DNA of 64,000 bases from a virus (taxonomy: Duplodnaviria; Heunggongvirae; Uroviricota; Caudoviricetes), in IMG/VR virus record IMGVR_UViG_2695420523_000009, positions 12,534-76,533 of that record; one strand, 5' to 3'. Made by a program: the position numbers and the translations under genes. Every line of letters begins with the position of its first letter. The first letter of the stretch is position 1. This document shows, piece by piece, positions 4,720-60,606 of the stretch. The notes below the pieces were generated by a model that was not told the DNA's origin, searched no databases, and saw only the letters and a program-made list of their open reading frames with translations.

Positions 4720-6828
4720 ATGTCTAAAAAACGTTCCATCAAAGAGGTTCAGGACTTCCGTGACAGTGTAAAACGAGTAGTCGCTCTCCTTTCAGGTAAA
4801 AACATCCCTGTTGCAGAACGAGGGGACGACGCTTATGTACGCTATAACGATGATGGAGAGCCAATTCTCGTAAACATCCCATCAATCCCGGATAACGCAA
4901 CACCGGCATTGATGAATGCTGTGCGCGGATTTCTCGATCATGAGGTTGCTCACATTTTGTTTACCGATATTCGTGTGTCCAACAAAATGAGAGAAAAAGG
5001 ACGCGTTCCTTCCTGGTCGCTATGGAATGCCTTAGAAGACGTGTTCATCGAGCGAAAAATGGGTCAGGTCTTTAACGGAACAAGACGTAATCTGATGGCA
5101 ACTCAGCGCCTTATAATCGAAAAAGTCTTTAAACCAAAGGCTTCAGAGGCTATTGCTTATTGTGGCAAAGATCAGCGCGCGCTTTTTCTAAACTTCTTTC
5201 TCTGTCCGGTTGTAAGAGCCTGGGATGGCCAAGCACCGTTCGTAGATTTCATGGATGAACATTGGCCTGTCATTGAGAAACCAATTTCATTATTAAAAGA
5301 ACATGGTATCGATGTGGCCGTGCGTAACATGTCTTGCACCGAGGATTGTGTAAAGGTGGCTGCGACCATAGCTAAGATCCTCAAAGACACTGAAAGTGAA
5401 AGCAAAGGTAAGGAGTCAGCTCCGGGAAAAACTTCCGATCCTTCAGACGCTGACCAGACGGATGCCTCTGGAGAAAACAATGAAGACAACGAAGATCATG
5501 AGACTCCCTCAGTGTTAGATAATTACAAATCTATCAAATCAGAATCACATAGTAAGTACAAACATGATAATAACGACAGTGATGATTCAGATAATTCTGA
5601 ATCATCAGAAACAATATTCGATGATACAGAAAATGATAAAGAGGTATCAGATTCTGATGCTTCTGATAACGCGGCGTCAGAATCATTAACCGCTGACCAC
5701 GAAAAAAGAAAAACGACAGAAGACGGCTCTTCAGATATCCCAACTCCGTCAAAAATGAGTCTGGAAGAGGCTTTAGAGGAGTTGGATAGCATGGAAGATG
5801 AAGTCGGAGGCATGACAGAAGATGCGCTATCCGAAACGATTAAAAGCGAGTTAACAGAAAGCTCGAAAAGCGAATACAGGCCATACAATCGCTCATACGA
5901 CTTCATCGGCTCGATTGATCAGGCAGAAGCCCATATCAAACGGCTTATTAAAACATTCTCCGATATTGATTTGGGAGGATATCCAATCAGCCGCTATCGC
6001 ATCGTTCCTGAAGGCAACCAGCTCTTCGACAAATATATTGAAAAGCATCTTTCGTCAGGTGTTTCGTCGACGCTGGCAAAAGACCTGGAGCGAGCAATAG
6101 CAAGCAGAAACAGAGTTCAGTTTATACCGGGCCAGCGTCGGGGGCGCATTCATGGTTCTAGTATCTACAGATTAGCAATGAATGATGCTCGCGTGTTTCG
6201 TAAAAAAGAAGAATCTAAAGCCGTTAACGCCTGTGTTCAACAAGTGATTGATTTATCAGGTTCAATGAGTGGTATAACGATTAAACTGGCTCTTGCAAGT
6301 GCATATACCATCGCCGATGCCCTTGATCGAATAAATGTTCCCAACATTATCACCGGCTTCACTACATTTGGTAGTCATATGGCGGCAGGAGAACTTAAGG
6401 CTGTCAAGTATGAGTTCTCTCGCTTTGAATCTTTAATGCTACCTATCATCAAAAATTGGAATGAAAAGGTAAATTCTCGCGAAGTTCGCTCACGTATGGG
6501 GTGTGTAGGCTACACATTCCCACTTCTTAATAACGTGGATGGTGAAAGCATAGCCAGCCTTGCATCGTTATTTTCCGGTCGCATGGAGGACAGGAAGATC
6601 ATGCTTGTTCTGAGTGATGGCGCGCCGTGGGCTGTTGGGAGAGGTTTTGACGCTCATTTGCGTTCAGTTGCGAAGCAAATTGAAACGCAGACTGATATTG
6701 ATTTGATGGCAATTGGCATCATGACTGACGCACCGGAGAGATTTTACTCAAATCATGCCCTGGTAACGAGCGTTGATAGTCTTGGTTCATCTGTAGTTAC
6801 TGAACTATCTCGTATCATTTTAAAGTGA
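4720..6828 (+). CDS. cobT: CobT-like von Willebrand factor A domain protein
   Basis: 702 aa; long acidic Asp/Glu/Ser linker in the middle; C-terminal vWA with MIDAS motif (VIDLSGSMSG); paired with a downstream CobS-like ATPase. Confidence 0.75.
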   Translation: MSKKRSIKEVQDFRDSVKRVVALLSGKNIPVAERGDDAYVRYNDDGEPILVNIPSIPDNATPALMNAVRGFLDHEVAHILFTDIRVSNKMREKGRVPSWSLWNALEDVFIERKMGQVFNGTRRNLMATQRLIIEKVFKPKASEAIAYCGKDQRALFLNFFLCPVVRAWDGQAPFVDFMDEHWPVIEKPISLLKEHGIDVAVRNMSCTEDCVKVAATIAKILKDTESESKGKESAPGKTSDPSDADQTDASGENNEDNEDHETPSVLDNYKSIKSESHSKYKHDNNDSDDSDNSESSETIFDDTENDKEVSDSDASDNAASESLTADHEKRKTTEDGSSDIPTPSKMSLEEALEELDSMEDEVGGMTEDALSETIKSELTESSKSEYRPYNRSYDFIGSIDQAEAHIKRLIKTFSDIDLGGYPISRYRIVPEGNQLFDKYIEKHLSSGVSSTLAKDLERAIASRNRVQFIPGQRRGRIHGSSIYRLAMNDARVFRKKEESKAVNACVQQVIDLSGSMSGITIKLALASAYTIADALDRINVPNIITGFTTFGSHMAAGELKAVKYEFSRFESLMLPIIKNWNEKVNSREVRSRMGCVGYTFPLLNNVDGESIASLASLFSGRMEDRKIMLVLSDGAPWAVGRGFDAHLRSVAKQIETQTDIDLMAIGIMTDAPERFYSNHALVTSVDSLGSSVVTELSRIILK

Positions 6829-12532: not shown

Positions 12533-13561
12533 ATGTCTAAGACATTACTTGATTTGCTTAACAAAACTCGTGAAGACATTGCCGCCAAACGTGGTAACAA
12601 CGTTGATCTGACTCGCTTAAAAGACGGCGTCAACTATATCCGCATCTTCCCGAATAAAGACGACCCAAACGGTAAGTTCTTCCAGACTTTCGGTATGCAC
12701 TACGTTAAGTATCAGAACGAGGAAGGTAAAGAAGCAACCAACGCTTATATTTGTGAGCAACATACTCACGGTCGCGCTTGTCAGCTATGCGAAATGGTGA
12801 TGGAAGGTCGCGCTCGTCACAAGGGTAACAAAGCAATGGAAGAACGCATCGGTCAAATGCGTGCCACTCCTCGCTACCTGGTCAACGGCATTCTTTCTGC
12901 TCGTGAGGATTTCGCAGATGCTGAGAAATGCCAGTTAATCGAGCTGCCGTCTACTGTATTCGATGATATCTGCAAAGCAATCACCGAAGACATCGCTGAT
13001 GATATCGGCAATCCACTGAGCAAAGAGGAAGGCTACGCATTCCTGATTAAACGTACTGGCTCTGGTCGCGATACCAAATATGACGTCTCGCCTAAGCGTA
13101 AAGTCTACAAAGGCGATATCGAAGATAAATTCTGGAATACCCAGCATGATCTGATCGCATACGCAAATCAAGCTGATGAAACTCGTCTTCTGTCGACAGT
13201 TCGCACTATGGGTCGTCTGATTGGCATCGCTGCACCAACTGCCGCAGCATCTGCACCAGCAATTTCCTCAACCGCGAAAACATCGGCTGCGGCACTACCT
13301 GGATTTGGCTCTGTCACTGGTCATACGGAGGGTGCGACTGCTGTAGCTACCGCTCATACCCCAGCTTCTGAACCAACCAGTCTGGTTGATGAAGAAATCC
13401 TCCGTGCCGTTGAAACTGAATTTAAACCAGAAGCAAGTCCCGCTGCCGTTGCAGTATCAGTCAAAGAGTCTGAAGCAGTCGCAGCGACATCTGTAGCAGC
13501 CGCATCTGCGACGGAAGATGAAGGTCTGGATGACCTACTGAGAGAGCTGGACTCTCTGTAA
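12533..13561 (+). CDS. single-stranded DNA-binding protein, T4 gp32-like
   Basis: IRIFPNKDDPNGKFF resembles gp32 IRFLPSKNDE; Zn-site-like C-x2-H-x-H-x3-C-x2-C (CEQHTHGRACQLC); Ala-rich linker and acidic C-terminal tail (EDEGLDDLLRELDSL). Confidence 0.7.
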   Translation: MSKTLLDLLNKTREDIAAKRGNNVDLTRLKDGVNYIRIFPNKDDPNGKFFQTFGMHYVKYQNEEGKEATNAYICEQHTHGRACQLCEMVMEGRARHKGNKAMEERIGQMRATPRYLVNGILSAREDFADAEKCQLIELPSTVFDDICKAITEDIADDIGNPLSKEEGYAFLIKRTGSGRDTKYDVSPKRKVYKGDIEDKFWNTQHDLIAYANQADETRLLSTVRTMGRLIGIAAPTAAASAPAISSTAKTSAAALPGFGSVTGHTEGATAVATAHTPASEPTSLVDEEILRAVETEFKPEASPAAVAVSVKESEAVAATSVAAASATEDEGLDDLLRELDSL

Positions 13562-18646: not shown

Positions 18647-18655
18647 TAGCACCAA

Positions 18656-19129
18656 CCACTGCGGTGAGTAGCCAGCTCACCGCATTCGTATCAGCTCATT
18701 ATCCACTGTGGTCTGCAGTCCTCTCTTCCTACATATCTGCTAACCACTGTAGCGAGTAGACAGCCTTTCATTCGCATCAAACAACCACTATGGTGAGTAT
18801 TGGAGTGAGATGTCCAGCGGGTATCCACTATGGTGAGTAAGCCTTTGCTGTTTTCAGTGGATATCCACTCGCCACAGTGGATACGCTCAAAGATGAGGGC
18901 GACAACAACCACTATAGACAGTGAATTTTCCAAGATACCCAGTGACCACTAACCTCGCAGCCCTTGTTTCATCAGTGTTAGTGATCACTAACATTTAATT
19001 CAGTATTTGCATTCTACTGCCTACAGTGGTTATCAACAGATAACGATACTCATTATAGTGGATAGCGAATTACAGATATAAGTAAGGCTCACTACAGTGG
19101 ATAGTGAGCCTTACTACTAACTACAGTGG
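18656..19129. repeat. iteron-like repeat array downstream of repA (incA-like)
   Basis: About 11 copies of CCACT(A/G)T(G/A)G / CTA(C/T)AGTGG cores (e.g. 18703, 18745, 18785, 18825, 18909, 19021, 19053, 19092, 19121) in two orientations at 30-47 bp spacing. Confidence 0.65.
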
Positions 19130-19134
19130 TTGGG

Positions 19135-20190
19135 CTATTTGCGAGTCTTTGCCTTGCGCAACTCTTCGAGAAGCGCCAGTTCTTCTTTACTCAACATGAC
19201 CATTTTGCCTTCTTTTTCGTCAGGCACAACGTCGATAATGTCATCTTGATTCTCATCTGGGAGGCTATATTCCGTCTCATCATTATCGATTTTTGTTGAT
19301 ATTTGTGCCTGGCGTAACTTTGGCCGCCTATAGTGGATGACGAAGTAGACCGAGTTTCCGCGCTTAACTTCCGTGTAATCGAGATATCCTATCTCTCGCA
19401 GCTGTTCCATAGCCTTTCTTACCGTCGCATTCTGAGTAATAGTGCGACTTGTCAGATTAAGTCTGGCGCGTAAACGGGCTAGTGATATTGGTGCCGGATC
19501 AGGCGGCAAACTTTCAATAAAAGTATAAAGCGCCTGAGCGGATTCTTTTCTTGAGAGTTCGTTTATAGCCCGGAGTTGCAGAAGAACCTTTTTGTCGAAC
19601 TGGTAGAGTTCGAAAATCTTGGGATCTGCTTTCAGTTCGACCGTATCGTGCTTGACACTATATTTTGCCGTTTGCACAAGATGCGTTACGTAAAACTCAT
19701 CAGAGCCTTTGCTACGGAACGAGATGGTATTTGTGGCAATACGGCTTAGCGAACTGTCCAGGCGTTTGCGTAACTTCGCTGATGACCTGGCGGTCGGAAT
19801 GCCACACAGTCTTACAAACTCAACGAACGGCAACGTGACAGTATCGCCAACGACCTTGTGTTTGGCAAACGCGTGGATTATTCCCACCCACGTTTTAAAG
19901 TCGTTATCCATATCAAGCCGAAGGCCAGAGATCCTTATGTCTTCGTACCCTTCGGCTTTTGCCAGAGACAGCTGTTTGAGTTCAGCAGAGGCATCCATAG
20001 AGACCATTTGCCCCTTTCTTCCTCTGGATGTCGATTTCAGCGTCGGAACGAAGAGGCCCAGACGCATCAAAGCAACAGGCTGAACAGTGTTATTAGTGTT
20101 AGGAACCAACGTAACAACTTCGCCTGTCTTTTTATCTGTTTCTGAAAATGCTTCAACGATCGCTATGTTTTTATTGCCGTTTTCGCTCAT
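19135..20190 (-). CDS. repA: plasmid-type replication initiator, RepA-like (iteron-binding; RepFIB/P1 RepA family suspected)
   Basis: 351 aa; N-terminal [17 protein letters not shown] motif recalled from RepFIB/P1-type RepA; flanked on both sides by iteron arrays. Confidence 0.75.
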
Positions 20191-38252: not shown

Positions 38253-38290
38253 NNNNNNNNNNNNNNNNNNNNNNNNNNNNNNNNNNNNNN
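38253..38290. other. assembly gap (run of 38 N)
   Basis: Literal N characters in the sequence. Confidence 1.
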
Positions 38291-46121: not shown

Positions 46122-47222
46122 TCACACTGCGCGGAATGCGATTTCGCCAGGTATTACTTCACCTTGCCAATACATTTGGGCAGCAACGCGATCTGCGAGG
46201 TCACGATAAATAGCCGTAAATTCGCTATCTGGACGACTAATAACGGTTGGTGTTCCGTTATCCAGATCTTCACGAAGAGAGATATGAAGTGGCATTTGGC
46301 CTAACAACTGCGTGTTGTATTTCTCGGCCAGTTTCTGTGCGCCACCGGTGCCAAAAATTGGCTCGTGATGACCGCAGTTACTGCAAATATGCACACTCAT
46401 GTTTTCGACGATACCTAGTACCGGCACTTCGACTTTTTCGAACATCACAATGCCTTTCTTCGCATCGATCAGCGCGATGTCTTGCGGCGTAGTTACCACA
46501 ACCGCACCAGTTACAGGAATGTTCTGCGCCAGCGTCAACTGAATATCACCAGTGCCCGGCGGCATATCGAGAACGAGATAGTCCAGATCAGGCCATAGAG
46601 TTTCCTGCAACATCTGCATCAGCGCCTTGCTGGCCATCGGTCCACGCCACACCATTGCATTGTCGTCGGTGACCAGATAACCAATAGAGTTGGTTGCCAG
46701 GCCATGAGACATGATAGGTGCCATGTGAGTACCGTCAGGTGAGGTTGGACGTTGGTTTTCCGCGCCCAGCATGGTTGGAATTGATGGACCATAGATATCG
46801 GCATCCAAAATACCAACTTTCGCACCTTCAGCAGCCAAAGCCAGTGCCAAGTTTACTGCTGTGGACGATTTGCCTACACCGCCCTTGCCTGAGCTTACGG
46901 CGATAATATTCTTAACACCATTAATGCCTGGTTGGTTTTTGACGCGCTTAAGCGTGGCAATGTTGTACGACAGCTTCCAGTCAATAGCCTTTGCGCCAGT
47001 GATACGGAGCAGATCACCACTACATTGCTCTTTCAGGTCTTCAAAAGGCTTATTCCACACGAAAGGCATGATTAGTTCGACATGCAGTGTGTCATCCATC
47101 AACGCAACATGGTGTAACGCTTTAAGCGTAGTCAGGTTGTGTTTCAGGGTTGGGTGCTGAAAATTAGCCAGCGTACCGGCTACCATTGCTCTCAGGGCAT
47201 CCGGCGATTTGGACTCGCTCAT
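46122..47222 (-). CDS. mrp: Fe-S cluster carrier ATPase Mrp/ApbC
   Basis: Protein essentially identical to E. coli Mrp as recalled (GKGGVGKSSTAVNLALALA, CSNCGHHEPIFG); RBS AAGGAG. Confidence 0.95.
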   Translation of the reverse strand: MSESKSPDALRAMVAGTLANFQHPTLKHNLTTLKALHHVALMDDTLHVELIMPFVWNKPFEDLKEQCSGDLLRITGAKAIDWKLSYNIATLKRVKNQPGINGVKNIIAVSSGKGGVGKSSTAVNLALALAAEGAKVGILDADIYGPSIPTMLGAENQRPTSPDGTHMAPIMSHGLATNSIGYLVTDDNAMVWRGPMASKALMQMLQETLWPDLDYLVLDMPPGTGDIQLTLAQNIPVTGAVVVTTPQDIALIDAKKGIVMFEKVEVPVLGIVENMSVHICSNCGHHEPIFGTGGAQKLAEKYNTQLLGQMPLHISLREDLDNGTPTVISRPDSEFTAIYRDLADRVAAQMYWQGEVIPGEIAFRAV

Positions 47223-47379
47223 CCCGTCTCCTTTATTTTAATTTGCGCAATTGTCGCCTTGTAGTGTACTCCAGCTGCGACATTTAATCATTTATGAGAA
47301 ATGCTGTTATCACATGGCAGACATAAGGCCATTTTGTTACTATCAAGCCCCTTTTCACTACAAAGAAGTAATGCCTACT

Positions 47380-49413
47380 ATGACCCAAGTCGCGAAGAAA
47401 ATTCTGGTGACGTGCGCGCTGCCGTACGCTAACGGCTCAATCCACCTCGGCCATATGCTGGAGCACATCCAGGCTGATGTCTGGGTTCGTTACCAGCGAA
47501 TGCGCGGCCACGAGGTTAATTTCATCTGTGCCGACGATGCCCACGGTACGCCGATCATGCTGAAAGCACAGCAACTTGGTATCACACCGGAGCAGATGAT
47601 TGGCGAAATGAGTCAGGAACACCAGACTGATTTCGCAGGCTTTAACATCAGCTATGACAACTATCACTCGACGCACAGCGAAGAGAACCGTCAGTTGTCT
47701 GAGCTTATCTATACTCGCCTGAAAGAGAACGGTTTTATTAAAAATCGCACTATCTCTCAGTTGTACGACCCGGAAAAAGGCATGTTCCTGCCGGATCGTT
47801 TTGTGAAAGGCACCTGCCCGAAATGTAAAGCGCCAGATCAATACGGCGATAACTGTGAAGTTTGCGGCGCGACCTACAGCCCGACTGAACTGATCGAGCC
47901 GAAATCGGTGGTTTCTGGTGCTACCCCGGTAATGCGTGATTCTGAACACTTCTTCTTTGATCTGCCCTCTTTCAGCGAAATGTTGCAGGCATGGACCCGC
48001 AGCGGTGCGTTGCAGGAGCAGGTGGCAAACAAAATGCAGGAGTGGTTTGAATCTGGTCTGCAACAGTGGGATATCTCCCGCGACGCACCTTACTTCGGTT
48101 TTGAAATTCCGAACGCGCCGGGCAAATATTTCTACGTCTGGCTGGACGCACCGATTGGCTACATGGGTTCCTTCAAGAATCTGTGCGACAAACGCGGCGA
48201 CACTACCAGCTTCGACGAATACTGGAAGAAAGACTCCACCGCCGAGCTGTACCACTTCATCGGTAAAGATATCGTTTACTTCCACAGCCTGTTCTGGCCT
48301 GCCATGCTGGAAGGCAGCAACTTCCGCAAGCCGACCAACCTGTTTGTTCATGGCTATGTGACGGTGAACGGCGCGAAGATGTCTAAGTCTCGCGGTACCT
48401 TTATTAAAGCCAGCACCTGGCTGAATCATTTTGACGCTGACAGCCTGCGTTACTACTACACTGCGAAACTCTCTTCGCGCATTGATGATATCGATCTCAA
48501 CCTGGAGGATTTCGTTCAGCGCGTGAATGCCGATATCGTGAACAAAGTGGTGAATCTGGCGTCCCGTAACGCGGGCTTTATCAATAAGCGTTTTGACGGT
48601 GTGCTGGCAGGCGAACTGGCTGACCCGCAACTGTACAAAACCTTTACTGATGCCGCTGAAGTGATTGGTGAAGCATGGGAAAGCCGCGAATTTGGTAAAG
48701 CGATTCGTGAAATCATGGCGCTGGCTGATCTGGCTAACCGCTATGTCGATGAACAGGCTCCGTGGGTGGTGGCGAAGCAGGAAGGACGCGATGCCGATCT
48801 GCAGGCGATTTGCTCTATGGGCATTAACCTGTTCCGCGTGCTGATGACGTACCTGAAACCGGTACTGCCGAAACTGACTGAACGTGCAGAAGCATTCCTG
48901 AATACAGAACTGACCTGGGATGGTATCCAGCAACCGCTGCTGGGCCATAAAGTGAATCCGTTCAAGGCACTGTATAACCGTATCGATATGAAACAGGTGG
49001 AAGCACTGGTGGAAGCATCCAAAGAAGAAGTGAAAGCCACAGCTGCACCGGTAACTGGCCCACTGGCTGACGACCCGATTCAGGAAACCATCACCTTTGA
49101 CGACTTCGCCAAAGTTGACCTGCGTGTGGCGCTGATTGAAAACGCGGAGTTTGTCGAAGGTTCTGACAAACTGCTGCGCCTGACGCTGGATCTCGGTGGT
49201 GAAAAGCGTAATGTCTTCTCAGGCATCCGTTCCGCTTATCCAGATCCACAGGCACTGATTGGTCGTCACACCATTATGGTGGCTAACCTGGCTCCGCGTA
49301 AAATGCGCTTCGGTATCTCTGAAGGCATGGTGATGGCTGCTGGCCCCGGCGGGAAAGATATCTTCCTGTTAAGCCCGGATGCCGGTGCTAAACCAGGCCA
49401 TCAGGTTAAGTAA
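47380..49413 (+). CDS. metG: methionyl-tRNA synthetase
   Basis: From [26 protein letters not shown] (HIGH motif) through KMSKS and the C-terminal tRNA-binding domain, collinear and near-identical to E. coli MetG (677 aa); start set to the internal ATG 47380. Confidence 0.97.
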
Positions 49414-50818: not shown

Positions 50819-50939
50819 CGGTTGCAACTCATTGATAATGGCGGTCACAATTTGATTCTTTTCTATAAGAATCCGTTGATCGCCACTACTCCCTTTCCAT
50901 ACCCGCAATCACATCCTTAAATATCAATAAGTTATAGTT

Positions 50940-51700
50940 TTTATACAATCAAGAAAACAACTGAATAACAGATCAACGAAACATCAACGCTTTCACCCGA
51001 TTTGGTCTAAAAAATTGACGTTTTCACACATCACTTCTTATACCCGTAATTCTACGCAGCAGACAGCGCCACAGCGTCCAATTTTCACCACAGACGACCC
51101 AACACACTACCAACAAAAACACACGCTCAAAATCGCTCCCGTTGCGTTACACAACCATATAAACAACTTATTTTCAGGCATAACAAAACAACTAAATAAC
51201 ACACATGCCATTCCCAAAAACAACCAACCTCTTTATGGCAGGCTACCGAAAAGACCCACCTCTTCTCCCCAGGCTACCGGACAGCCAACCTAACTTTCAC
51301 AGGCAATCCGAAAACATTCATACGCGCAATACCCACGACACGCCATTACCCAAACAGCGAAGAAACACCAGAATCACTGAAACCCCAACGAAGCCTGTAA
51401 CCACAAGGATTCTCTCAATCCCAAAAGACACGAAACATAACAATCACGGGAAACGCCATTACCCAATACACGAATAACTACAAAAGCCCTTCACGCACTC
51501 CAGACAAACAACTCAAACACAACAACGAAAGGAATCGCCCACCTGCCATTACTCCATACATGGAGAAGAACAATCACCAAAACGACGAGAACACCCCATA
51601 GAAGAACCACCGCAAAACGAACGAAACCACATACACCGACAGAGAAACAACACACCCAATTCACCAACAGAAATAGTCGCCGTATAGAACATTCTGGAAG
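50940..51700 (+). other. A+C-rich, G/T-poor non-coding tract (strand-asymmetric)
   Basis: Top strand dominated by A and C with few G (e.g. CAACACACTACCAACAAAAACACACGC); the ORFs called here are composition artefacts with no RBS. Confidence 0.6.
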
Positions 51701-51875
51701 GAGTGAGCATTAACGCCTATAGAGAGGTTGAGACAGAAAAACACAACATGTATAGCGAAGAAGCCAGGTATGTATAAGTGGGGAGGGAAGGAGGGGTGTC
51801 GCCTCCTTTTTCGTATTTATTCAACTCCTGATTTTATCCCCCCGTAACACCCCTACGGTCAGTCTTCGGTCCATA

Positions 51876-52009
51876 CAGGGAAAAGGTTGCATCCCGCTAC
51901 AGAAACGGCTGGGTTGCCTTCGGGGAACGGCTGGGGATTTTCAGGGAAACGGTCGAGTTGCCTGTGTGGATTTCGGGAAAAGGCTCGATGCCGGTTCAGG
52001 AACGGCGGC
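51876..52009. repeat. direct-repeat array, GGGAAACGG family, about 22-bp periodicity (array 1)
   Basis: Six copies (CAGGGAAAAGG, CAGAAACGGCTGG, CGGGGAACGGCTGG, CAGGGAAACGG, TCGGGAAAAGG, CAGGAACGG) at 21-22 bp spacing (one 31 bp); TGTGGAT DnaA-box-like core at about 51965. Confidence 0.6.
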
Positions 52010-52343
52010 GTACCGGTATAGCGAGAGGGAGAGTTGCGGCTACCCACCTGTAATGTGCGGGAAGAAGAGAGGCGCTCACGTGCAGGCGAACTTACTTACC
52101 GCTGGATTCCCTCTGAATGCCCAACTACAGCGTAATTGTGCCAGACAGCCAGCGGGTCACAATCGATTTCAGTAGGTTTTCGGGGAGAGGATTATTCTGC
52201 CTACCAGCCACTTTCGGCCACTAAATCAGAATAATGTAAAAAGTGTACTCGGTACTGAACCTGAAAACTCACTGCCAAAACCACATTCACCGGAATAAAA
52301 TCCTTTTCCGCCTTTGTCTTATTGCGATAATAACACCAACAAG

Positions 52344-52359
52344 TAAACAACATGTTTAG
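52344..52359. promoter_or_regulatory. AAACAA-N-TGTTTA palindromic motif
   Basis: TAAACAACATGTTTAG, upstream of the ATG at 52390. Confidence 0.45.
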
Positions 52360-52389: not shown

Positions 52390-52608
52390 ATGATTAAGAT
52401 GCCTGTGACGGTTGAGGTGTGGGGCGTGGATTCCCTGGCTGAGTGTCTGGATGCAGTGGGGCCGGAGTTGTACCGCAAGTTGTGGTCGTTCGTCCCGGCA
52501 GAAGGGGAATCGCCCAAAGGGAAGGATATCTGGCACCTGCTGAGTGAAGATGAAAAGCGAGAGCTGGTGGACGCGGTACACAGCGAGTTCCCGGGCGACG
52601 AAGATTAA
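52390..52608 (+). CDS. hypothetical protein
   Basis: 72 aa, RBS GAGGATGAAGAG. Confidence 0.5.
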   Translation: MIKMPVTVEVWGVDSLAECLDAVGPELYRKLWSFVPAEGESPKGKDIWHLLSEDEKRELVDAVHSEFPGDED

Positions 52609-54701: not shown

Positions 54702-54870
54702 TTATTAAGGCCATCAGCATTGGTGGCCTTAAATGACCATCTTGTTTCCCGCAGGCTAAAAACACCAACCTCTTACCTCCAGGCAACCGACAAACCCACC
54801 TGTTCCCGTCCGGCTACCGCAACTTTCCACTTTGACGCCTTATTCGTACAACGATAATTAACGCCAACAA

Positions 54871-54905: not shown

Positions 54906-55388
54906 ATGAATTTTATCGCTACTGTAAACGCACCCGCACATGGCAATATCGCTGTAACGTTCTCTGACATTGAAAAACGAGTACTTGGTGCATGGCGCGA
55001 CAATGAGACGGTAGAACTGTCAGCACAAGAAAAATGCATTATTGCACGCGACATCATTGGCAATCGTCGTTACTCGCGGGTATTTGAGAAAGCGTATGTG
55101 GTAAATTCTGGATTCGGAACGTTCGTCTTTCCGGTGCGCTCCGGGCGATTCTGCCAGTCCAAGCTGATTGAGTTCGCTACGCAGATTTCTGTCTGGATTA
55201 AAACTCAATCGTCGTTCAAATTTTCCGACGATGAAGCAGTATCGCAGGGGATGCGGATCGCCAACAATGCGATTAAATGCAAAAACATTACGTATACCGC
55301 TGGCGTTGATACATGGAAACTGTTTTGCGCTAACTTTATGCTGAATGTATACGCAAGCAACCGCATCCACATCCTTGATGGCGTGTAA
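54906..55388 (+). CDS. hypothetical protein
   Basis: 160 aa, RBS AAGGAA. Confidence 0.55.
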   Translation: MNFIATVNAPAHGNIAVTFSDIEKRVLGAWRDNETVELSAQEKCIIARDIIGNRRYSRVFEKAYVVNSGFGTFVFPVRSGRFCQSKLIEFATQISVWIKTQSSFKFSDDEAVSQGMRIANNAIKCKNITYTAGVDTWKLFCANFMLNVYASNRIHILDGV

Positions 55389-55420: not shown

Positions 55421-55438
55421 ATAGCCACCAGCTGCCGC

Positions 55439-55550
55439 AGGGAAATTTTCAGAAGCGGCGAGGAACGTATTCATGAGCCGACGGGGAACGGCCAGGATTT
55501 TTTCGGGAAACGGCTGCATTTGCCTTTGTGTAGAAAAAACATCGGGAAGC
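55439..55550. repeat. direct-repeat array, GGGAAACGG family, about 22-bp periodicity (array 2)
   Basis: CAGGGAAAT, GAGGAACG, GGGGAACGGCC, CGGGAAACGGCTG, CGGGAAGCTGG; same family as array 1 at 51876..52009. Confidence 0.55.
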
Positions 55551-55963
55551 TGGTGGAATCCAACCAGCGGTTGTCGGACAGGTGAGCGGGGAAAATTATG
55601 ATGACTTTCGTCACCTGAGACATCCAGATTTCTTTCGTAGCATAATCACATACGTGATTAAGTGGTGTGATTATGTGAAAAATCACGCGCACATAATACG
55701 CGAGCGGATACGGAACAAAACAAAATGCCGATCCGCGCCGACAAATAAACGCGGATCATAAAGCAAGACTAAAAGCCAATGATTAACTATGCGCTATAAC
55801 GCGTTTTAAGCGCGTTAATGTGTTAAGTAATGGGTATGTACTGGCAAGGATATAAAAGCGCGTCTATGGCGTTATTTTGGCGCTTATTTTTATGTTGTTG
55901 GAGTGAGTTAAAGACAATAAAAAACGCGCCATCAATGGCGCGTTATTGTGGAAGTATTGGAAA

Positions 55964-56000
55964 CGAAAAAAGCGCCCATAGTGGGCGCTCGATTTTATTT
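55964..56000. terminator. bidirectional terminator; GCGC-rich hairpin family member
   Basis: AAAAAAGCGCCCATAGTGGGCGCTCGATTTTATTT; serves the minus-strand operon ending at 55995. Confidence 0.7.
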
Positions 56001-56225
56001 ATGTAAACTGATTTCAAATCCCATTTCTACAAACGCTTTTAACATTAAAAATAGATCAGCGTCGTTCACGTCTGCTTTTTTTCGCTCCTGGTCGCTCAAT
56101 AAGTCAATTTTGCGCGTCGTTTCATCTATAAGCTCGACTGCGCGCCCAGCGTAACCAGCGATCCCAGCGATGCGATTAACATAATATTCATTATGGACGT
56201 TAACGCCAGCGATAAGAACAAACAT
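55995..56225 (-). CDS. hypothetical protein
   Basis: 76 aa, last gene of a 3-gene minus-strand operon in an AT-rich islet. Confidence 0.45.
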   Translation of the reverse strand: MFVLIAGVNVHNEYYVNRIAGIAGYAGRAVELIDETTRKIDLLSDQERKKADVNDADLFLMLKAFVEMGFEISLHK

Positions 56226-56498: not shown

Positions 56499-57149
56499 TT
56501 ACGCTTTAAAAGCATCAGCTAAATAATTGTAGAAATCATTCTTGATAAAGCGATATTGCTGTGTACCAGCTTTGGCGCTCCCAGCTCCTTTGACTTTTTC
56601 AACAAGTCCGAGACGTTCGCAAAGATTGATCAACTGGTTGGCTTGAGTATAGCCAGCGTCCAATTTAATTTCACACGCTTTTTTAGCTTCATTCATTAAA
56701 TCGAAAACAGCGCCATTGGTGAACGTGTCGATCTCGTCGTTAATCATATCGATTAAAGCGAATACACGAGATCCAGACATATCAGCGATGGAATAAATGC
56801 ATTTACCAGATTTAATTGATTTAACCAGATAAACCAGTTTTTCCAGAGAATAACTATTAGTCATTGCATCACGAAAAAATACTTCTGGCGCTTGTTTGCT
56901 TGCTTTAATCGCATAGTAGAAAACAGAGCACAATTTTTCGTCTTCTACAGCGTTTACAACGTTGTTGATGAAGTAAGCTAGTTTAGTGGTCGCAGCTTGC
57001 ATATTTGCTTTGTCTGCTTTAGTGTGCGTACCATTTTTATAATGTTCGTTGTATGTTTGAGTTGCCAGATCTGCTTTTTCGCGCAGTTCATCGGATACAA
57101 TGGAAGCAGCTTCAACGATGGATTTTTTAGAAATGATAATGTTAGCCAT
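56499..57149 (-). CDS. hypothetical protein (C-terminal winged-helix-like segment)
   Basis: 216 aa; C-terminal QLINLCERLGLVEKVKG resembles a wHTH recognition region; preceded by a 280-bp AT-rich promoter region. Confidence 0.55.
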   Translation of the reverse strand: MANIIISKKSIVEAASIVSDELREKADLATQTYNEHYKNGTHTKADKANMQAATTKLAYFINNVVNAVEDEKLCSVFYYAIKASKQAPEVFFRDAMTNSYSLEKLVYLVKSIKSGKCIYSIADMSGSRVFALIDMINDEIDTFTNGAVFDLMNEAKKACEIKLDAGYTQANQLINLCERLGLVEKVKGAGSAKAGTQQYRFIKNDFYNYLADAFKA

Positions 57150-57745: not shown

Positions 57746-58270
57746 TCAAAAAGGCAAAATTCGTTCAACCCAATCGAACAAAACAACTATTTTTCTACCG
57801 TTCTCGACACGTAGTGTAACCTGACAAGCATCTGCACCTGCTGACACCCCCTCAATTTCACGGCCATCCGCCATGTACACCCTTATAGATTTGTTTGCTT
57901 TGTAGGCTTGGTTGCAAATTGCAAAAAAATCGCGGCGTGATGGCCGATTATCGACATAATCAGGGTGAACTGTTAGTCGACCTTTGAAATCGTGAGCGAT
58001 ACTGTCAACCACACCTGATTCAATTGTACTAATGCGTTCAAGTGGGAGCCTTATACGATTTTCTTTGTCAAAAGGGGCTGGGCAAAGGTCAACTTTGTTA
58101 CGAGATGGCATGAGGCCATAAACGTACATGCAAAACGCCTGGCCATCTTCGAGAGTGACCCTTACAGGAATTTGTTCTCTGCGCCAGAACATCAGTAGTT
58201 TTTCAACGTTAGTGTAATCTCGCGGCCAGAGTTCAGCTTGGATACCGTAGGTAATATCTTTGGTTGTCAT
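57746..58270 (-). CDS. hypothetical protein
   Basis: 175 aa from the internal ATG at 58270; the ORF-track start 58348 would overlap the upstream lipoprotein gene by 74 nt. Confidence 0.45.
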   Translation of the reverse strand: MTTKDITYGIQAELWPRDYTNVEKLLMFWRREQIPVRVTLEDGQAFCMYVYGLMPSRNKVDLCPAPFDKENRIRLPLERISTIESGVVDSIAHDFKGRLTVHPDYVDNRPSRRDFFAICNQAYKANKSIRVYMADGREIEGVSAGADACQVTLRVENGRKIVVLFDWVERILPF

Positions 58271-58274
58271 GTCA

Positions 58275-58739
58275 TCACAGAGTTGTTGGCAGAATGTCGA
58301 TGTCACCAGAATTGCTGGTGAACACCCTGAACGCTTTTGTGTCTCCATTCTTCAGAGTCGTTTCTCGCTCTTGACGAGCGGGGTTTAGAGCACATAAACC
58401 TGCACCTTCAAGAGATGCACCCACAATTAATTCTCCGGCATTTAAATGGAAAGTCGCTTTTTCGCCTGTAGCCAGTTTTGCGACAGTTTCGCCGTTGATG
58501 AAAATGGAAGCATCACATCCAGCTCCTACAAAACCTGTGTCTCTCATTACCACCAACGTAGCTGGCGCTGCGCTTTGATACTTGAACACTTTGGCCTGCG
58601 GTGCTGGTTTGGCGTCATGGATTGATATTGGGCGTGATTGGCACGCGGTAAGCATCAACACTGGTAACGTTAGTAGAGGGAGAAGCGAGTATTTCATGAT
58701 AGTTTTAGAACAGAAAGTGAACAGTATGGGAGACTTCAT
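58275..58739 (-). CDS. putative lipoprotein
   Basis: Lipobox LTAC; the internal Met (58697) gives a canonical 19-aa lipoprotein signal peptide (MKYSLLPLLTLPVLMLTAC); RBS AGGGAG before the 58739 start. Confidence 0.6.
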   Translation of the reverse strand: MKSPILFTFCSKTIMKYSLLPLLTLPVLMLTACQSRPISIHDAKPAPQAKVFKYQSAAPATLVVMRDTGFVGAGCDASIFINGETVAKLATGEKATFHLNAGELIVGASLEGAGLCALNPARQERETTLKNGDTKAFRVFTSNSGDIDILPTTL

Positions 58740-59046: not shown

Positions 59047-60606
59047 CTAATCTCGTTTCAGAACTCCAAAATCGAATGCTCCATCAATAGGCAATACACC
59101 TTCTGCAAAGCCAGGTGTGGTGTCGATGATGTGTTTTCGCTCATAAGAGTGAGACAACAGGTATTTGTTGCTAATGTCAATGAAATCAGTGATAAAACAC
59201 ACGTTTGCCTGATTTTTTTTGGCTCGTAAGCCACGACCGACACGCTGTCTCATTTCAACTTCTGCTTTCCCACCACCAGCAAGAATGACCGCACCAACGC
59301 TTGGCACATCAACACCAACATCCAGAATAGTCGAGCCTATTAAAACATCTATTTCACCAGACGCTAAACTATTCAGCTTTGCTTGCCTTGTCGTCTGGTT
59401 AGATTCCCCATAGATGAAATCAACTTTAAGACCTGACTCCTTCATCATCTCCATCAGGATTTGCCCGTGGCGTTTAAGACGAACCAGAGTCATGCAGTTG
59501 AGTGAATGTTGCTTATAAAGCAATGCCTCGCGCACTATGGCCTCGTTACGTCCCAAATTATACACGATCCCCAACTGATAAGCCTTTTGGTAGGCGGTGC
59601 TCATACCAACTCTAAAATTGAGGTGTTTGTTGGCAAGTTCGGCCTTGATTCTGGCCTCGTCTGGCTTGTAGGCAACTTTATGATAAAGGAAGTACGGCTT
59701 TGCCAGAATGCCTCGATCAATCAGGTACTTTTCTGTGACTTTAATTTCAATTCGCCCGGCCACCGCCATCAGGCGCATGTTGGCTTCCGTCGAATCCTTC
59801 ATGAACGGCGTGGCTGTAAGCGCCAGACGATAGTCTGCGTTCACACATAATCTGGCAATGTCATAGAAATTAGAGCCTGAAGACTCATGCGCTTCTTCCA
59901 GAATAAGCAGAGACACACTTGAAAGGAAGCGTTTCACCAACTCCCGACGTTTGAGATGGTAGCTCTTTTTATCTGGTGTTGCATCGCGTGGTGGTTCTTC
60001 AAGGAAACTTGCCAGAGTTTGAACTGTAGCGACGTTGATATGTCGTGATACCTGGAACTCACCCGAGCCAATGACTCCAACCTTTTGGCCCTTTAACCAC
60101 GGTTCGCCATTTTCGGCGCGGTAGTCGATGGATCTCTGGAAGTTTTCGGCCATTTGAAACATCAGAACAGAGCGGGTTGTTAAAAATAATGTCATTCGAC
60201 CGATACGTGCAGCTGCTTTGCAGGCAACGTTAGATTTCCCGCCACCAGTAGCGATCTGCGCAATCATCATTCCCTCTCGAACCAGTGTTTCCACAGTCTG
60301 ATCCTGATACGCATAATCAGGATTGTATGGGAATGGGTTAACCGCCGGATTTGGTTTACCAAGCGCCGGGGCTTTGTCTTTGCGGATATGAACACATTTG
60401 ATGCCCGCCTTGTTCAAGTTCGCCGCTACAGGCTTGGCAAAGCCAGCAGGGAACGAGTTTTTACTCCAGTTGAACATCGTGCTTGTGCCCTTCCAGTCGC
60501 CAGTCTCGACTTCGTAGCTCAACATTTGCTGCACCAGTTGCTTTACCTTGTCATCTGCGCCAGAAATAAGCGCATTTACTGCGTTAGATACAATCCGAAC
60601 AGTCAT
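59047..60606 (-). CDS. superfamily-2 DNA/RNA helicase (DEAD/DEAH-like, ResIII-type)
   Basis: Walker A IATGGGKS, DEAH-like LILEEAHE, motif III LTATP, motif VI QRVGRGLR. Confidence 0.85.
   Translation of the reverse strand: MTVRIVSNAVNALISGADDKVKQLVQQMLSYEVETGDWKGTSTMFNWSKNSFPAGFAKPVAANLNKAGIKCVHIRKDKAPALGKPNPAVNPFPYNPDYAYQDQTVETLVREGMMIAQIATGGGKSNVACKAAARIGRMTLFLTTRSVLMFQMAENFQRSIDYRAENGEPWLKGQKVGVIGSGEFQVSRHINVATVQTLASFLEEPPRDATPDKKSYHLKRRELVKRFLSSVSLLILEEAHESSGSNFYDIARLCVNADYRLALTATPFMKDSTEANMRLMAVAGRIEIKVTEKYLIDRGILAKPYFLYHKVAYKPDEARIKAELANKHLNFRVGMSTAYQKAYQLGIVYNLGRNEAIVREALLYKQHSLNCMTLVRLKRHGQILMEMMKESGLKVDFIYGESNQTTRQAKLNSLASGEIDVLIGSTILDVGVDVPSVGAVILAGGGKAEVEMRQRVGRGLRAKKNQANVCFITDFIDISNKYLLSHSYERKHIIDTTPGFAEGVLPIDGAFDFGVLKRD

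Follow-up and report, generated by a model that had tools for sequence, protein, structure and literature searches.

The DNA analysed here, 64,000 nucleotides in length and referred to as the window, covers positions 12,534 to 76,533 of the IMG/VR virus record IMGVR_UViG_2695420523_000009 and is part of an Escherichia coli phage-plasmid of the SSU5/pHCM2 type. An initial annotation, made from the letters of the window, had drawn attention to a strand-asymmetric tract lacking open reading frames (ORFs) and ending in a repeat array. Comparison with related elements showed that a conserved non-coding module of SSU5/pHCM2-like phage-plasmids occupies window positions 50861-52343, bounded on the left by an invariant block (50861-50884) and on the right by the promoter and operator (52323-52357) that serve the first small early gene. 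It is the largest conserved non-coding region of these phage-plasmids, and is best explained as a cis-acting, non-coding module that stands at the head of the early-gene block and is conserved there. The features of the module and two related features downstream are as follows.

50861-50884, + strand: left boundary block TTCTATAAGAATCCGTTGATCGCC, invariant or nearly so in 36 representatives
50951-50970, + strand: operator-like half-site box AAGAAAACAACTGAATAACA of the AAACA-N3-TGTTT family, column conservation 0.99
51015-51043, + strand: promoter-like site P1, TTGACG (51015-51020), 17 nt, TTATAC (51038-51043), in 32 of 36 sequences
51048-51690, + strand: A/C-rich, U-poor, structure-free segment of a putative transcript (from composition and minimum free energy, MFE)
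51161-51173, + strand: internal operator AAACAACTTATTT, a perfect palindrome in other lineages
51217-51283, + strand: motif B, (A)CC(C/A)ACCTCTT-N5-CAGGCTACCGA, units of ~31 nt, two to three in tandem
51342-51552, + strand: motif A, core GCCATTAC at 51342, 51455 and 51545 (copies aligned)
51691-51784, + strand: purine-rich, C-poor segment with G runs and CCGTATAGA / CTATAGAG-type repeats
51785-51812, + strand: conserved hairpin (terminator scan and RNAalifold)
51806-51846, no strand assigned: conserved, modestly AT-rich block CGTATTTATTCAA...TTTTATCCCCCCGTAAC (AT 63%, conservation 0.81-0.91)
51877-52010, + strand: array 1, six units TTC(A/G)GGGAAACGGC in ~22 bp phase
52323-52357, + strand: extended -10 promoter (TGcGATAAT) and operator AAACAACATGTTT of the first small early gene
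54731-54823, + strand: second set of motif B, three units, located between a terminator and the promoter of a 160-aa gene
55425-55556, + strand: array 2, GGGAAACGG-type units at 55441-55545, with flanking inverted Chi octamers

Distribution and conservation of the module

The region was found to be 92-98% identical to the Escherichia phages Cyrano, PhiR41_1 and CMS-2020a and to ~190 E. coli plasmids of ~110 kb each, while a more sensitive search identified the tract in 839 plasmids and 12 phage records, including SSU5. The hosts of the plasmids were Klebsiella, Escherichia, Enterobacter, Salmonella (pHCM2), Citrobacter, Cronobacter and Buttiauxella. The tract was carried by 239 of 5426 complete E. 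coli genomes and was plasmid-borne every time. An alignment of 36 non-redundant representatives (59-97% identity to the window) was used for the comparisons below, the most divergent relatives (L094, L098 and L099) having been reached via protein anchors. Fragments of the tract on large Klebsiella plasmids were found to be uninformative remnants truncated by insertion sequences, and a Serratia locus (L097) was not syntenic.

Overall identity of the tract between lineages was 61%, with blocks above 90% (61-97% over more than 800 elements), whereas four-fold degenerate sites in two neighbouring conserved genes were only 34-67% identical between the same lineages; the tract is therefore under constraint. 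Its A+C content was 67-81% in all lineages, including the three most divergent, and the substitution spectrum of distant pairs was approximately that expected for saturated sites of that composition. Since the A/C bias persists in every lineage despite saturation of the variable positions, it is the composition that is being maintained.

The left boundary block TTCTATAAGAATCCGTTGATCGCC forms the 3' half of a hairpin (50840-50884) which follows a variable upstream cargo gene. Which gene adjoins this boundary depends on the lineage, and each genus has its own cargo there; only the E. coli lineage has a methionyl-tRNA synthetase (47251-49413) and an ApbC/MinD-like ATPase (46122-47222) immediately before the module. 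An inserted ORF of 243 nt on the - strand separates array 1 from the first early gene in the Salmonella, Enterobacter and Cronobacter lineages. This insertion and the Klebsiella remnants were noted in loci L006, L007 and L008 (~6270-6540) and L026 (~4900-5615). No Rfam family matched the tract at the gathering threshold or at E <= 5, and the searchable literature on SSU5, pHCM2 or phage-plasmid non-coding RNAs held no account of the module.

Composition, coding potential and predicted RNA structure

The top strand of the segment 51048-51690 consists of 40.6% A, 33.3% C, 12.4% G and 13.7% T. At 0.74 per 600 nt, its A+C content lies seven standard deviations (sd) above the window mean of 0.50 (sd 0.034), further than anywhere else in the window; the bias which the initial annotation had reported is thus real, while its wording (almost entirely A and C) overstates a value of 74%. 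The turn to A/G-rich sequence that it had described was also found, the segment 51691-51784 being purine-rich and C-poor (38% A, 30% G and 13% C). The ratio of C to G has a median of 2.7 over 870 nt, and nowhere in the window does C/G stay above 1.5 for longer than at 50831-51702.

The tract holds no credible ORF, as had been claimed: the longest is of 92 aa, the ORFs vary by lineage and none is annotated by PGAP or RefSeq. In comparisons with more distant lineages, 7-10 of 10-13 indels were not multiples of three, and the ORFs called on the tract in the Cyrano and PhiR41_1 records were not conserved. Start codons are few, with three ATG, no GTG and one TTG in 643 nt.

The + strand RNA of 50851-51750 has a predicted MFE of -25 to -38 kcal/mol per 300 nt, compared to -79 +/- 13 for the window (z of approximately +3.3 to +4.2, on the + strand only), and includes the least structured + strand segments in the 64 kb. 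The complementary, G/U-rich strand folds ordinarily (-69 to -80 kcal/mol per 300 nt).

Promoter-like site, operators and hairpin

P1 is the only promoter-like site conserved family-wide in the 1.5-kb module, and no conserved promoter was identified on the - strand of the module among the 36 sequences. Its hexamers are invariant in the three most divergent relatives and the length of the spacer is fixed, while the sequence of the spacer varies. The second hexamer may alternatively be read as TATACC with an 18-nt spacer, and the predicted start is at ~51050. As the second hexamer is imperfect, P1 was missed by a strict promoter scan, and it may be weak or activator-dependent.

There are 19 copies of the palindrome AAACA-N3-TGTTT in the window, compared to 4.4 expected. 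In ~15 extended -10 promoters of small + strand genes it covers the -35 or is placed between +5 and +20, and it therefore forms a dispersed operator network. The sites listed are 4688, 17098, 28828, 39074, 39803, 40517, 43425, 49498, 49549, 51161, 52345, 52722, 53206, 54109 and 54873. Operator boxes of the module, at 50951, 51161 and 51183, stand on both sides of P1 and are full palindromes in other lineages: the box at 50951 is the full palindrome AACAACTTGTT in L094, the most divergent relative, and the operator AAACAACTTATTT is followed by a second half-site at 51183-51192.

The hairpin at 51785-51812 is supported by nine RNAalifold pairs, several of them with two or three pair types. A T run, which gives it the appearance of an intrinsic terminator, is present in the E. 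coli and Klebsiella types only and absent from the Salmonella/Enterobacter type. The predicted product has a length of ~760 nt (~51050-51812) and would be made only on derepression of the element. In published transcriptomes of LF82 lysogens, an ORF on the 5' part of the tract was at the detection floor while the upstream cargo gene was highly expressed (PMC9928086, S1 table); silence of the tract in lysogens is as expected for a repressed lytic function. The earlier suggestion of a gene for a long unstructured RNA is supported as a physical property of the + strand, accompanied by a conserved promoter-like site and a closing hairpin.

Repeated motifs and arrays

The six direct repeats that had been reported were confirmed in array 1, with GGGAAACGG-type cores at 51879, 51901, 51923, 51944, 51976 and 51998 and spacings of 22, 22, 21, 32 and 22 bp. 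Seven core matches were found in 140 nt, compared to a maximum of four (mean 2.3) over 200 shuffles. The array is kept in the most divergent relatives, and indels of the size of one unit (22 nt) were found in PhiR41_1 and Cronobacter. The units contain TTC-N2-3-GAA half-palindromes at a phase of two helical turns. A second array of the same family was likewise found, with cores at 55441-55545, past the terminator of a conserved 160-aa gene. Cores cluster at these two places only, in the window and in every related locus checked, and always on the strand of the early genes. The iterons of the RepA replicon of the element (18650-19130) differ in sequence from the array repeats, as had been noted.

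Inverted Chi octamers lie on either side of array 2 (CCACCAGC at 55425, GCTGGTGG at 55549). The octamer GCTGGTGG occurs 14 times in the window, compared to 1.3 expected, with further copies at 52563/52617 and at 10 other sites. The inverted pair (55425-55432 and 55549-55556) recurs in other lineages within different local sequence, where terminator hairpins also carry Chi; the pair could act as Chi or as a stem which closes the array.

Motif A is concentrated in the tract, where three of the five exact matches in 64 kb fall within one stretch of 210 nt. A degenerate copy (GCCATTCC) is present at 51207, and other lineages have four to six copies. Motif B is present in two to five copies in other lineages. 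It also accounts for the 80-bp homology that had been reported between the tract and a downstream segment: 59 of 92 aligned columns are identical and the similarity is made up of the ~31-nt motif B repeats. Both segments and both arrays had been said to bracket the block of small genes; this is true of the arrays and not of the 80-bp pair, as its second copy lies upstream of the last small gene. Since the second motif B set and array 2 are in spacers between a terminator and a promoter or beyond a terminator, they are probably untranscribed. Over the 36 representatives, copies on the + and - strands numbered 113 and 0 for motif A, 81 and 1 for motif B, and 143 and 17 for the array cores, counts which are not independent because the sequences are related.

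The octamer CTATAGAG, one of the repeats of the purine-rich segment, occurs six times in the window (20298, 20340, 50707, 51717, 53110 and 55417), compared to 0.9 expected. Two copies are upstream of repA, and two directly follow early-gene terminators, adjoining CCGCAGGGAA.

Interpretation as a possible lytic origin or early control region

The reading that we prefer, tentatively and at rather less than an even chance, is that the module, with its iteron-like protein sites, acts as a lytic origin or early control region of the R-loop type and is activated by transcription. We infer this plausible role from the architecture of the module, from thermodynamics derived from its composition and from its gene context. 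The replication genes of the element are as follows.

8340-32236 and 59047-60606: T4-like replication and recombination genes
19135-20190: Rep_3 plasmid replicon, with its own iterons at 18650-19130

The T4-like set comprises DNA polymerase III alpha, a gp32-like single-stranded DNA-binding protein (SSB), a 5'-3' exonuclease, RecA/UvsX-like and Mre11/Rad50-like proteins, RNase HI, ribonucleotide reductase, thymidylate synthase and a DEAD/DEAH helicase which is annotated as UvsW in the Cyrano record.

The difference in energy between an RNA-DNA hybrid and the DNA duplex was estimated along the window by the nearest-neighbour method (parameters of Sugimoto 1995 and SantaLucia 1998). No other 1-kb segment of the 64 kb, whichever strand is considered, favoured the hybrid as strongly as the + strand segments starting at 51150-51700 (z -2.5 to -2.9). 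The hybrid energy becomes negative right past P1, dips furthest at array 1 and is back at zero ahead of the next promoter; the profile is alike in six lineages, and RNA from the - strand is unfavourable. The calculation unifies the A/C-rich, the purine-rich and the G-rich array segments. A leftward, G/U-rich R-loop was rejected, there being no conserved - strand promoter and the hybrid energy being unfavourable.

Under the proposed mechanism, the repressor would leave on induction and P1 would fire. The untranslated, structure-free RNA would hybridise with its template from just past the promoter to the end of array 1 and, because the hybrid is calculated to be more stable than the duplex, is proposed to persist as an R-loop. 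Following trimming by the RNase HI or 5'-3' exonuclease of the element, the RNA would prime leading-strand synthesis, and a helicase and the gp32-like SSB would load onto the displaced A/C-only strand, itself unable to fold. The arrays would be bound by a DNA-binding protein encoded by the element, with array 2 as a second, auxiliary set, like crr in P4.

A 216-aa protein encoded on the - strand beside array 2 (56499-57149) is predicted to combine a long helical hairpin with a C-terminal winged helix and is a candidate binder of the array repeats. Foldseek gave weak ORC/Cdc6-like matches for it (E ~0.02, TM 0.3).

Known origins share parts of this arrangement. The T4 origins oriF and oriG form R-loops in which RNA primes leading-strand synthesis and which are unwound by UvsW, while oriE has evenly spaced direct repeats (PMC3016281). 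Like oriF and oriG, ColE1 RNA II and the mitochondrial LSP/CSB region, the module has a promoter (here the putative P1) positioned to direct an untranslated RNA, with no conserved ORF, inward to the putative origin. Like R-loop origins it has a hybrid whose computed stability equals or exceeds that of the duplex and G runs near the end of the RNA, and the element encodes RNase H, a 5'-3' exonuclease and the UvsW-annotated helicase. By contrast, ColE1 RNA II is highly folded and the T4 origins consist of a promoter and an unwinding element of ~50 bp; we know of no R-loop origin with a 640-nt, A/C-only, structure-free leader. Direct repeats at approximately two helical turns, with a second array 3.5 kb away, recall P4 ori/crr, P1 incC/incA and T4 oriE. 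Array 1 consists of tandem, helix-phased direct repeats in the 17-22 bp range of iterons, and its unit-sized indels are also like those of iteron origins. Unlike iteron origins, the arrays lack an adjoining Rep-family or alpha-type initiator and conserved DnaA boxes, the Rep_3 gene being 32 kb away and its origin using other iterons. Finally, a palindromic operator over ~15 early promoters, those of the module included, is like the dispersed C1 operators and the P53-repL-oriL arrangement of P1 and suggests a lytic function silenced by the prophage repressor, although the operator sequence differs from that of P1 and no repL-like gene is present. The module does not fully match any of the systems compared (transcript-primed origin, iteron origin, sponge or Rho leader).

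Several observations weigh against an origin. The hybrid-energy calculation restates the composition, so that it is not independent evidence. No recognisable initiator adjoins the arrays, the ORC/Cdc6-like matches of the 216-aa protein being weak. The DnaA-box-like TGTGGAT reported near array 1 is present at 51964-51970, but it is lineage-specific and no conserved DnaA boxes were found. The AT-rich block is short (41 nt) and only 63% AT, and neither GC skew nor gene orientation gave an origin signal. A C-rich, G-poor, untranslated RNA is an ideal substrate for Rho, and Rho removes R-loops. In the E. coli type, transcription may end at the hairpin and its T run, short of the array, and motifs A and B are left unexplained by an R-loop origin.

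Alternative explanations

The confinement of the motifs to one strand and the absence of structure would be accounted for if the ~0.76-kb transcript (~51050-51812) is a trans-acting decoy or sponge which titrates an RNA-binding factor or an RNA of the host or the element in early lytic growth, an explanation that we consider possible though not likely. A permanently single-stranded, U-poor RNA would then display GCCAUUAC three to six times, motif B two to five times and CCGUAUAGA-type repeats; RNase E sites should be few, and the arrays would be a separate DNA feature. This agrees with the high specificity of motif A, which is confined strictly to one strand and conserved amid varying flanks, with the absence of structure on the + strand only, with the scarcity of start codons and with a discrete unit bounded by P1 and the 3' hairpin. 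In its short conserved motif in several copies, its accessible RNA and its closing 3' hairpin the module is like the sponges CsrB/RsmZ and AgvB; unlike them, its RNA is twice as long, matches no Rfam family and has GGA-rich arrays which are not consistently looped. No partner was found, motif B is also present in an apparently untranscribed spacer and the transcript was not seen in lysogens.

The partners considered for such an RNA were rejected in turn. An AgvB-like sponge of GcvB is contradicted by the lack of conservation of its complementarity, the 13-nt match to GcvB at 51514-51526 being absent from other lineages. Operator half-sites, as targets of a sponge, were not enriched over a composition-matched model (P 0.05-0.3). 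A CsrA-type reading, after CsrB/RsmZ, was discarded as the GGA motifs of the arrays are mostly paired in the predicted fold and not looped, with no Rfam match. A link to the FljA family via similarity to the fliC leader was unconvincing (P <0.05 in three of ten operators and one of three motif A copies). The element encodes a 200-aa FljA-family protein on the - strand (57746-58348; PF03614, E 2e-84) with a weak Sm/Hfq-like match at residues 145-187; its target is probably within the element, because the gene is kept in elements of non-flagellate Klebsiella.

Two further regulatory systems suggested by motif B were likewise rejected. A type III toxin-antitoxin system with motif B as a ToxI-like repeat is not supported by the 160-aa protein, which lacks a ToxN fold. 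Its AlphaFold model is confident (pLDDT 88), and neither Pfam nor a Foldseek search of the PDB gave a match for it. Read as its reverse complement, motif B agrees with the ops element of RfaH leaders (GGCGGTAGCGTG) at nine of ten positions, but on the strand opposite to that of the only conserved promoter.

In a broader form of the decoy explanation, which we think quite unlikely, the module would encode a new class of phage regulatory RNA, a structure-free, U-poor "linear" RNA of ~0.7 kb made at lytic onset as a high-capacity decoy in trans, for example by sequestering Rho or some other factor that binds single-stranded RNA, or via the GCCAUUAC sites.

A further alternative, which we regard as unlikely, is a Rho-loading leader or insulator. 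Here a very long rut-like zone would abort transcription from the upstream cargo gene, or leakage from P1, before the array and the early genes, with read-through only when Rho is countered. The tract is C-rich, G-poor, unstructured and untranslated over well beyond 80 nt, as is a rut site, and in these respects resembles Rho-dependent leaders (rho, mgtA, corA) and the rut of lambda tR1; its C/G ratio is the most sustained in the window. The strong expression of the upstream gene in lysogens, with the tract at the detection floor, fits this role, as does the hairpin without a T run in several lineages, where another terminating mechanism would be needed. Yet the upstream gene already ends in a hairpin, and 640 nt with conserved internal motifs far exceed what a terminator needs; the tract is about ten times longer than rut sites and shows no obvious coupling to a downstream ORF. 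Moreover, every early gene has its own promoter and operator, and the arrays and the purine-rich end are unexplained.

It is improbable that the module is a regulatory or architectural region of DNA only, in which the operators, motifs A and B and the arrays would be double-stranded sites for proteins of the element (such as the 216-aa winged-helix protein) that loop or silence the early block between the arrays, without any need for RNA. The location of motif B and array 2 in terminator-promoter spacers, the half-palindromes phased every two helical turns and the winged-helix gene beside array 2 are all consistent with it. Double-stranded sites, however, give no reason for an extreme strand asymmetry conserved across variable spacers, nor for the occurrence of all motifs on one strand.

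A packaging (pac/cos) site or a partition centromere, both raised initially, is very improbable: the phased repeats do resemble site clusters of small terminases or ParB-type proteins, the heptamer GGAAACG of the array core also belongs to the lambda cosB R sites, and ParB_N proteins are encoded 8 kb away, but the heptamer match is within chance, no matching terminase was found, the phage records do not start here, TerL is of the T4 type (Terminase_6N) and ~12 kb away with no Nu1-like small terminase found, the nearest ParB_N genes belong to a terminase-proximal operon with no ParA/ParB operon adjoining the module, and the repeats are direct and phased and not ParB-box palindromes.

Other features of the neighbourhood

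The 160-aa gene (phrog_1641, 54906-55388) is the most conserved of the small early genes. The small flanking proteins had no Pfam match. GC-rich hairpins cluster in the convergent spacer at 55600-56010, which also contains a perfect 9-bp inverted repeat (ATAATCACA / TGTGATTAT); Rfam gave matches below threshold only in this spacer (Hrs1, E 0.077). A run of 38 N at 38253-38290 represents masked or unresolved sequence.

Significance for SSU5/pHCM2-type phage-plasmids

The module is a rare case in which selection visibly keeps a physical property of a single strand, namely the lack of structure and the scarcity of U, and not the sequence. An RNA of the module that acted in trans would represent a kind of phage RNA not seen before, and the class of linear RNA outlined above would imply that host transcription termination or RNA metabolism is reprogrammed. 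Clinical E. coli, Klebsiella, Enterobacter and Salmonella commonly harbour SSU5/pHCM2-type phage-plasmids, on which resistance genes can be carried; to our knowledge, neither the lytic origin of these phage-plasmids nor their switch from plasmid to phage has been mapped, and the module provides a concrete, testable candidate for one or the other.

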